64,000 nt of DNA from Eledone cirrhosa (taxonomy: Eukaryota). Both the position numbers and the translations under genes were made by a program. The stretch covers positions 38,378,001 through 38,442,000 of the forward strand of contig OZ024751.1 of the NCBI GenBank assembly GCA_964016885.1, written 5' to 3'. The notes below the pieces were generated by a model. It did not search any database. It saw only the letters and a program-made list of their open reading frames with translations, and was not told the DNA's origin. Below, piece by piece: positions 47,290-47,875 of this stretch (positions within the stretch are counted from its first letter, which is position 1; each line of letters begins with the position of its first letter).

Positions 47290-47620
47290 TGTATACTCTG
47301 CTATGTATTGAGTACCTTACTTACTGTGGTTACCTCCGATTCAACCCGGAATAACGTACCTATATATATATATATAATGTCTTCAACTTTTAATTTTTGT
47401 ATTTTTGTACCTATACAGCAGCGCTGTATGATCCTATATTTGCACTGAGCTAAAATACACCTAGTAAGTAAGCAAAATTTACTATCATTAGTATTACTTT
47501 TATATATATTTATATATATGTGTGAATGAAGTAGTTCCGTCGGAAAAGTCCAGGAAAAAAGAGTGCTCTATGTAGGTAACAGAGCTTAATAGTTATGTAA
47601 TAAACAACATAAGGCAATTA

Positions 47621-47683
47621 TTTCATTTACCAGTGGTTTCTTAAAAGCAAAAAAAAATGTTTTTTTCAATCATCAGAATGAAA
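47621..47683 (-). ncRNA. type I hammerhead ribozyme
   Basis: uuucauu-CUGAUGA-uugaaa...uuuuaa-GAAA-ccacugg-UA-aaugaaa. Confidence 0.8.
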
Positions 47684-47762
47684 AAATCCTGGCTTATTTA
47701 TTAACGTTGGATTTTAAAAAAAAGTTTTTAAAATCCAACGTCAATAAATATGCCAGGATTTT

Positions 47763-47823
47763 TTTCATTCTGATGATTGAAAGCAAATTTTTTTTGCTTT
47801 TAAGAAACCACTGGTAAATGAAA
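47763..47823 (+). ncRNA. type I hammerhead ribozyme
   Basis: 7-bp stem I uuucauu/aaugaaa, CUGAUGA at 47770-47776, ~11-bp stem II uugaaagcaaa/uuugcuuuuaa, GAAA at 47804-47807, near-palindromic stem III accacuggu, GUA triplet (predicted cut after 47816). Confidence 0.85.
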
Positions 47824-47875
47824 TAATTGCCTTATGTTGTTTATTACATAACTATATTTATATATATACATACTC

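Follow-up and report, generated by a model that had tools for sequence, protein, structure and literature searches.

Insertions of Penelope-like elements (PLEs) are described as often containing an inverted 5′-truncated copy and carrying a tail at one end (PMC8557442), and palindromes at their junctions, reported to be common, have been read as products of self-priming (Arkhipova et al. 2013, PMC3846280). Purified Poseidon protein is reported to nick and extend both strands of AT-rich targets and to begin reverse transcription at two start sites which bound the tail, the cleavage of the ribozyme being dispensable for this protein in vitro (PMC11167929). PLE hammerheads from animals are described as cleaving poorly in vitro, and dual minimal hammerheads located 100–700 bp apart on opposite strands in Schistosoma mansoni were ascribed to truncated PLEs (Cervera and De la Pena 2014, PMC4209133). 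Among PLEs, the Hydra clade is defined by protein motifs, namely RWK, DKT, a CxCX5C linker and the lack of CCHH, together with RT phylogeny (Craig et al. 2021, PMC8557442). According to File S2 of the same work, its hammerheads reside in the 3′ UTR and typically possess a helix III in the form of a 4-1-4 palindrome from AC to GT, and (TA)n serves as target.

Here we analyse a palindrome from the genome of Eledone cirrhosa which carries a hammerhead motif on each strand and is located in a window of 64,000 nucleotides, the term window denoting the whole stretch of DNA studied. We consider it, with a probability of roughly 0.87, to be a dead, severely 5′-truncated insertion of a high-copy PLE which probably belongs to the Hydra clade; two short hammerhead-bearing copies of its 3′ end were likely joined head to head at insertion.

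Architecture of the palindrome and its surroundings

The setting is AT-rich, microsatellite-laden animal DNA across the window. A preliminary description made from the sequence had reported a 267-bp palindrome with inverted arms of ca. 130 bp and without coding sequence, and both observations are confirmed. The arms (Table 1) are reverse complements of each other and alike in 126 of 133 alignment columns, the differences being four substitutions and three one-base gaps, and they enclose a loop of 4 nt (47721–47724). Folding of the stretch 47580–47870 yields −173.5 kcal/mol (z = −32), a stability reached by none of 200 shuffles. No open reading frame runs in sense through either arm; an overlap of an ORF start with the ribozyme, the arrangement of Poseidon PAc, was accordingly rejected. 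Further copies of the arm are not found within the 64-kb window, nor is there a head-to-tail repeat at the locus. A scan for sigma-70 promoters remained at chance level and, being of bacterial type, is not meaningful for animal DNA.

The extent of 47589–47855 given before is that of the palindrome but not that of the insert, which is larger and comprises 333 bp (47520–47852) in the order tail, inverted arm and direct arm, bracketed by a 15-bp duplication. This 15-bp word is likely a target-site duplication, although its low complexity makes it weaker than a 15-mer in mixed sequence would be; beyond it the left and right flanks are unrelated. The tail is present on the left side only and is 54–69 bp long. 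Positions 47520–47534 fall within or next to a masked stretch (47487–47531), and since the sharp read edge at 47535 may be an effect of this mask, the edge was not taken as the end of the element.

Table 1. Features of the palindromic insert; positions refer to the window
Feature	Positions	Strand	Basis and remarks
Left target-site duplication (putative), 15 bp, (TA)n-rich DNA	47505..47519		identical to 47853–47867; longest word common to the flanks
Tail (one-sided 3′ extension), 69 bp by the duplication	47520..47588	-	47535–47588 family sequence by read depth; 47520–47534 within or beside the mask
Left arm: inverted, 5′-truncated copy of the element 3′ end	47589..47720	-	alignment; 3 changes away from the family majority
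Type I hammerhead, core boxes intact, stem II 6 bp	47621..47683	-	predicted cut after 47628
Head-to-head junction on self-complementary T/A run	47712..47733		sequence; joints in family reads
Right arm: 5′-truncated, tail-less copy of the element 3′ end	47725..47855	+	alignment; tail-less ends against (TA)n common in the family
Type I hammerhead, intact	47763..47823	+	stem I 7 bp, stem II 11 bp, stem III 3 bp, GUA; predicted cut after 47816
Right target-site duplication (putative), 15 bp	47853..47867		overlaps the last 3 bases of the right arm

Several other repeats were observed in the window. A short interspersed repeat occurs in five copies which are 73–92% alike (7836–8033, 13468–13659, 18757–18901, 26151–26341 and 47870–48075), the last one starting directly after the palindrome insert. 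Located 300 bp upstream and adjoining (TA)n, an older second palindrome (47159–47289; 131 bp, 92%) contains back-to-back degenerate hammerhead cores of a different family with a longer helix III; its axis lies inside the 5′ strand of stem I, and its constrained hammerhead fold is weak. An imperfect palindrome of 120 bp (50620–50739) overlaps a repeat also present at 45030–45173 (85%) and contains no hammerhead by the descriptor. Three segments (311–607, 25666–26154 and 58800–59150) resemble, by eye, C-terminal pieces of non-LTR retrotransposon proteins.

A PLE-type fragment is found at 56183–58078. It has a C-terminal GIY-YIG match (Pfam PF01541, E 1e-4, 22.5 bits versus a cut-off of 22.6) and a CxxC-type linker, its look-alikes in the atlas stand at 0.96, and its ORF piece is broken by a stop near 56966. 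The fragment includes an inverted repeat with 420 of 425 bases identical and a minimal hammerhead core per arm, a 57-bp one-sided extension (tail) and a 10-bp duplication; compared with it, the palindrome has the same design minus the 970-bp body. A decayed relative of this PLE lies on the minus strand at 16000–17140 (69% DNA identity over 928 columns, 55% protein identity over 78 amino acids).

Hammerhead ribozymes of the two arms

A relaxed hammerhead descriptor detected three motifs in the window, two of them being the pair of the palindrome, and none in 200 composition-matched shuffles. The previous assignment of an intact hammerhead to each strand holds for the plus copy with respect to stem I, stem II and the GUA site; for the minus copy it holds for the core boxes but not for stem II, which is shortened from 11 to 6 bp. 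Calculated minimum-energy folds give the hammerhead for the plus copy and another structure for the minus copy, the hammerhead-fold probabilities of the single copies being ca. 5e-2 and 5e-5, respectively. Rfam, to which the preliminary description had pointed for confirmation, returned no hammerhead match, neither at gathering score for the whole window nor at E up to 10 for 47400–48100, where the 25 matches obtained are mostly hairpin models which fit any palindrome. In the family reads described below, the right-arm letter is carried at positions 47662, 47663 and 47703 by 641/717, 645/718 and 367/389 reads, respectively. The right-arm letters thus represent the family majority, which identifies the left ribozyme as the decayed one.

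Helix III of the plus copy is a 4-1-4 palindrome of the form AC-NN-x-NN-GT. Its pairing is calculated to contribute −8.2 kcal/mol between two molecules versus +0.4 kcal/mol as a hairpin, and because the palindrome is predicted to pair better intermolecularly, it would fit a dimer model.

The parent repeat family in sequencing reads

Reads and contigs from four runs out of 15 (X1, X4, X5 and X13) were mapped at 80% likeness to positions 47380–47750. X13 consists of raw RAD reads, ca. 85% of the run having been read, and X5 bears another organism label. RAD read counts are not equal to copy numbers, and the figures for joints, loose ends and variants refer to those listed, with 223 further loose-end and 35 variant rows and 2699 pieces beyond them. 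Family members on the mapped stretch amount to 2520 contigs in X1, 177 in X4 and 8 in X5 as well as 4409 reads in X13. The X13 depth is ca. 1640–1970 on the tail and 1500–1900 on the arm. As the depth on 47535–47588 is as high as that on the arm, the one-sided extension is element sequence and hence a tail. Toward the axis the X13 depth falls to 372 at 47705–47717, 80 at 47718–47730 and 8 at 47731–47750. At 47720, at least 256 X13 reads and at least two X5 contigs leave into a common, non-palindromic upstream sequence, which was read for 30 letters only, and at least 246 X13 reads and at least 25 X1 contigs represent copies which stop, like the right arm, at 47589 against (TA)n. Arm and tail together make up the 3′ terminus of a high-copy family. 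Its members include tailed and tail-less ones and for the most part reach farther in the 5′ direction.

Among the variants listed, 388 of 1201 reads deviate at the free core position N7 (47672), a G.U pair of stem II is replaced by G-C at 47643 in 621 of 1654 reads and an A-U pair of stem I by G.U at 47623 in 893 of 1751 reads; judged from these substitutions, the family variation respects the predicted ribozyme fold. The letter at 47693 is common to both arms and lacking in 891 of 931 reads. Being shared by the arms and rare in the family, it speaks for a single template lineage of the two arms.

The abrupt ends of reads at 47616 and 47619 coincide with an AATT word, and we interpret them as restriction ends of the RAD library. 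The flank of the locus (47380–47405) has zero depth in all four runs, so that the exact locus is without independent sighting; the organism of the run may be a relative. A stretch of the left flank (47419–47483) matches a separate low-copy repeat in X1, X4 and X13.

Fold-back junctions

Opposite-strand joints of X13 connect, among those listed, 47613 with 47642, 47613 with 47649, 47710 with 47720 and 47720 with 47720 (4–5 reads each, with 2 starts), and listed joints of X1 lead from 47587 to 47724, from 47635 to 47724 and from 47652 to 47725. A single X1 contig runs across the axis and has 4 additional letters. One of the X13 joints may be the palindrome locus in another individual. Several copies turn back close to one common TTTTTAAAA point, at junctions which differ. 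As the partner arms and loops differ among the joints at 47720/47725, the other joints are not copies of one palindrome, and the sequence data suggest the self-complementary T/A run as a preferred turning point. For 47725–47750 the mapping reference held the sense arm only, which biases the detection of joints toward the axis point, and the value of P = 0.004 for three junctions on one point, being post hoc and reference-biased, serves as a lead only.

The preliminary description had proposed that a common axis would indicate a mobile family and a unique axis a one-off insertion. This distinction turned out to be too simple: the axis region recurs, as expected for the former, but the junctions differ, and the combination fits a separate formation of the copies at a preferred point. 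In a scenario to which we attach little probability, the T/A run ca. 40 nt upstream of the ribozyme would be a built-in pivot of the Hydra-type family, where insertions would preferentially turn back and thereby yield two-ribozyme palindromes of 270–330 bp on a regular basis; some of these would in turn be transcribed and re-copied as a non-coding ambisense unit or would supply long hairpin RNA for small-RNA silencing of the parent family. If palindromes re-mobilise as units, they would constitute a new kind of non-autonomous element.

Folding of read-through RNA

The arms diverge from the axis in such a manner that the antisense copy is made first in a transcript of either polarity. According to equilibrium predictions, on which all folding figures are based, the hammerhead fold in RNA of the full palindrome is situated 63 kcal/mol (plus) and 71 kcal/mol (minus) above the ensemble, and the hammerhead probabilities of the full-length RNA are ca. 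5e-45 and 1e-50, one figure per strand. When the ribozyme is completed in prefix folds, pairing with the left arm already involves 94 of 99 bases of the right arm. A transcript starting at 47700, near the axis, attains a hammerhead probability of ca. 1e-2. Read-through RNA of either strand is predicted to zip up to a rod while the second arm is emerging, without cleaving itself. A fold of the plus ribozyme, likely in dimeric form, is predicted to be accessible only to transcripts starting near the axis. The switch between a rod and a self-cleaving fold envisaged in the preliminary description, in analogy to viroids, finds no support in these models because the antisense arm precedes the ribozyme on both strands and the hammerhead would cost ca. 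63 kcal/mol. Moreover, with one cut per strand neither unit-length nor circular RNA can be released.

Probable affinity to the Hydra clade

The element matches the form of helix III found in the Hydra-clade hammerhead table, where it is a recurring trait and not a formal definition (PMC8557442). A (TA)n target is present at the locus and at the loose ends at 47589; it is likewise described for Naiads and is thus not exclusive (PMC8557442). Comparison by eye revealed that the tail shares a 14-mer (47559–47572) and a 6-mer (47580–47585) with the 3′ end of Hydra-2_Ajap. This tail motif starts 42 nt after the cut site here and, by a hand count, 38 nt after that in Hydra-2_Ajap, and it forms a hairpin (47585–47565 on the minus strand) followed by a T run. 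On the basis of these motifs the element is likely a member of the Hydra clade, and it appears to be a Hydra family unlisted in Craig et al. 2021. Motifs of the arm gave no match in the supplements of PMC8557442 and PMC13282606, the line-wrapped sequences of which make this miss a weak one. The family was not found in the literature searched; Repbase, Dfam and bioRxiv supplements may catalogue it.

A scan of metagenomes by hammerhead pattern alone gave 118 matches at 117 loci. Eight of the matches have a stem of at least 4 bp, and five of these eight (L007, L010, L030 twice and L068) are plausible hammerheads. None of the hammerhead loci is similar to the arm in BLAST at E 1e-3, and no PLE protein match was obtained in the four hammerhead-bearing contigs. 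The tail motif occurs 41–42 nt past the cut site in three of the 117 loci, all of them hammerhead-bearing (L007, L010 and L030). The segments concerned (L007:1-200, L010 on the minus strand and L030:1-300) belong to unrelated AT-rich contigs with the same helix III, tail motif and spacing. L030 itself forms an almost perfect palindrome with two hammerheads back to back; it represents an unrelated family and has a different junction. In the window, the Hydra-type tail motif has a second match at 5601–5628, ca. 75 bp before a (TA)n run and with no recognisable hammerhead upstream, which is possibly an old remnant. The tail hairpin, positioned at a fixed 38–42 nt from the cut site in families from distant sources, is a candidate signal for the start of the reverse transcriptase in the Hydra clade.

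Origin of the palindrome

An extreme truncation-inversion product of a PLE, one of the two origins contemplated in the preliminary description, is supported by the duplication, the tail, the family 3′ ends and the published PLE architecture. The locus combines the traits of a PLE insertion: a 5′-truncated copy joined head to head with an adjacent inverted 5′-truncated copy, the optional 3′ tail at one end only, a type I hammerhead with a short palindromic helix III near the 3′ end, whose fold is kept in the family variants, and a target-site duplication, in this case a low-complexity word, in an AT-rich target.

The insertion might have proceeded as follows: The GIY-YIG endonuclease of the element would cut both target strands ca. 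15 bp apart, and reverse transcription would start at two family 3′ ends, one tailed and one tail-less. Both cDNAs would come to a halt near the T/A run, at a distance of ca. 40 nt upstream from the ribozyme, and their ends would be joined at this self-complementary sequence. For the joining step we prefer, by no means firmly, twin priming, to which fold-back self-priming of one cDNA is a close rival. The resulting product without ORF would presumably be a dead end.

Some features count against the derivation from a PLE. No reverse transcriptase/endonuclease ORF is linked to the family, whose upstream sequence was read for 30 letters. The tail of 54–69 bp exceeds the usually quoted 30–40 bp, and the hammerhead is unlike that of Hydra-1_Obim, the one published octopus Hydra family. 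Furthermore, the boundary 47720/47725 is common to several fold-back junctions, as might equally result from a recurring palindromic unit.

The parent might alternatively have been a short non-autonomous, retrozyme- or SINE-like element derived from a PLE and mobilised by a Hydra-type enzyme. This explanation involves the same insertion mechanism, the palindrome still being made at insertion, and differs only in the parent, whose RNA would carry no ORF. It would account for the finding that the last 200 bp occur in very many copies and in several subfamilies and for the fact that no ORF was seen, and animal retrozymes have been reported as derived from PLE pLTRs (bioRxiv 10.64898/2026.07.22.740005). 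However, neither a head-to-tail repeat at the locus nor a go-back joint among the six joints listed was found, and the decrease of depth in the 5′ direction fits ordinary truncation. We regard such a parent as quite unlikely.

The second, viroid-like origin contemplated before would be an ambisense ribozyme element of palindromic form which propagates itself as an entire unit and switches between rod and cleaving fold. In favour of such an element are the intact cores of both ribozymes and the inversions at the axis, where four X13 reads turn at 47720/47720, one X1 contig crosses and three X1 joints fall on 47724–47725. The junctions, however, differ in loop and partner-arm length, and at least 256 reads pass the axis point without inverting, most of the reads which reach the axis being non-palindromic beyond it. 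The two ribozymes are copies of one motif, the left one of which is decayed (641 of 717 reads with the right-arm letter at 47662). In addition, a hammerhead 63–71 kcal/mol above the ensemble and preceded by the antisense arm on both strands is predicted to be practically unable to form, and one cut per strand would not release an RNA of unit length. The ambisense element thus lacks support and is very improbable.

An artefact of assembly or library (fold-back read) or a MITE-type DNA transposon, suggested by the lack of depth on the locus flank in four runs and by the gapped assembly of the window (200 N at 43859–44058), is scarcely credible given arms that differ at 7 of 133 columns, a family tail on one arm alone, a 15-bp duplication around the insert with flanks unrelated beyond it and, for a MITE, unequal ends and variable 5′ lengths. 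A MITE assignment, which requires equal terminal inverted repeats and uniform length, was also rejected in view of the one-sided tail and the mostly non-palindromic copies.

Comparison with known systems

For PLEs, 5′-truncated copies arranged head to head, tails at one end only and hammerheads located on opposite strands are already on record (PMC8557442, PMC3846280, PMC4209133), and the single locus is an ordinary retroelement scar. In this compact example the target duplication, the family 3′ ends with and without tail and the point of inversion can all be seen, and the family is a high-copy one. The many natural junctions of this family allow a count-based test of twin priming versus fold-back self-priming; junction counts of this kind address the question of how the inverted copies of PLEs arise.

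The closest counterparts are the insertion units of EN+ PLEs (as described in PMC3846280 and PMC8557442), with which the locus shares the inverted 5′-truncated copy in head-to-head arrangement, the tail at one end, the AT-rich duplication, the 3′ hammerhead and the junction palindrome. It differs from these descriptions in that the palindrome has no remaining ORF, the arms meet at a 4-nt loop and the tail measures 54–69 instead of 30–40 bp. Within the Hydra clade (Hydra-2_Ajap, Hydra-1_Obim and Penelope-13_HM; Craig et al. 2021, Files S1, S2 and S7) the likeness concerns helix III, the (TA)n target, the tail motif of Hydra-2_Ajap and the position of the hammerhead toward the 3′ end; Penelope-13_HM is listed as having an inverted 5′-truncated copy and a hammerhead on each strand (PMC8557442). 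In contrast, stems I and II and the 3′ end are unlike those of Hydra-1_Obim and the other Hydra families listed there, stem II being long (11 bp) in the present element. The dual hammerheads of Schistosoma mansoni, as reported in PMC4209133, are similar as two PLE-type hammerheads on opposite strands, whereas the present palindrome has a helix III (3 bp in the monomer, 4+4 bp in the dimer), a mapped junction, a tail and a duplication.

Non-LTR retrozymes (Cervera and De la Pena 2020, PMC7229834) resemble the element in being non-coding, AT-rich, a few hundred bp long and present in high copy number with a type I hammerhead. They are, however, described as head-to-tail repeats which release circular RNA between two same-strand cuts, while the locus is arranged head to head; with one copy per strand and none elsewhere in the window, a retrozyme of this kind was rejected for the locus. 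Avsunviroidae and other ambisense hammerhead circular RNAs (PMC12382478, PMC6155905) likewise combine a hammerhead per polarity with a highly paired RNA. They are presented in these sources as circular RNA replicons, in which rolling-circle multimers are cut to unit length, whereas the palindrome is a piece of integrated DNA flanked by a target duplication, in which one ribozyme motif is present in two inverted copies. A viroid-like replicon was rejected on these grounds and on the predicted hammerhead probabilities of ca. 5e-45 and 1e-50.
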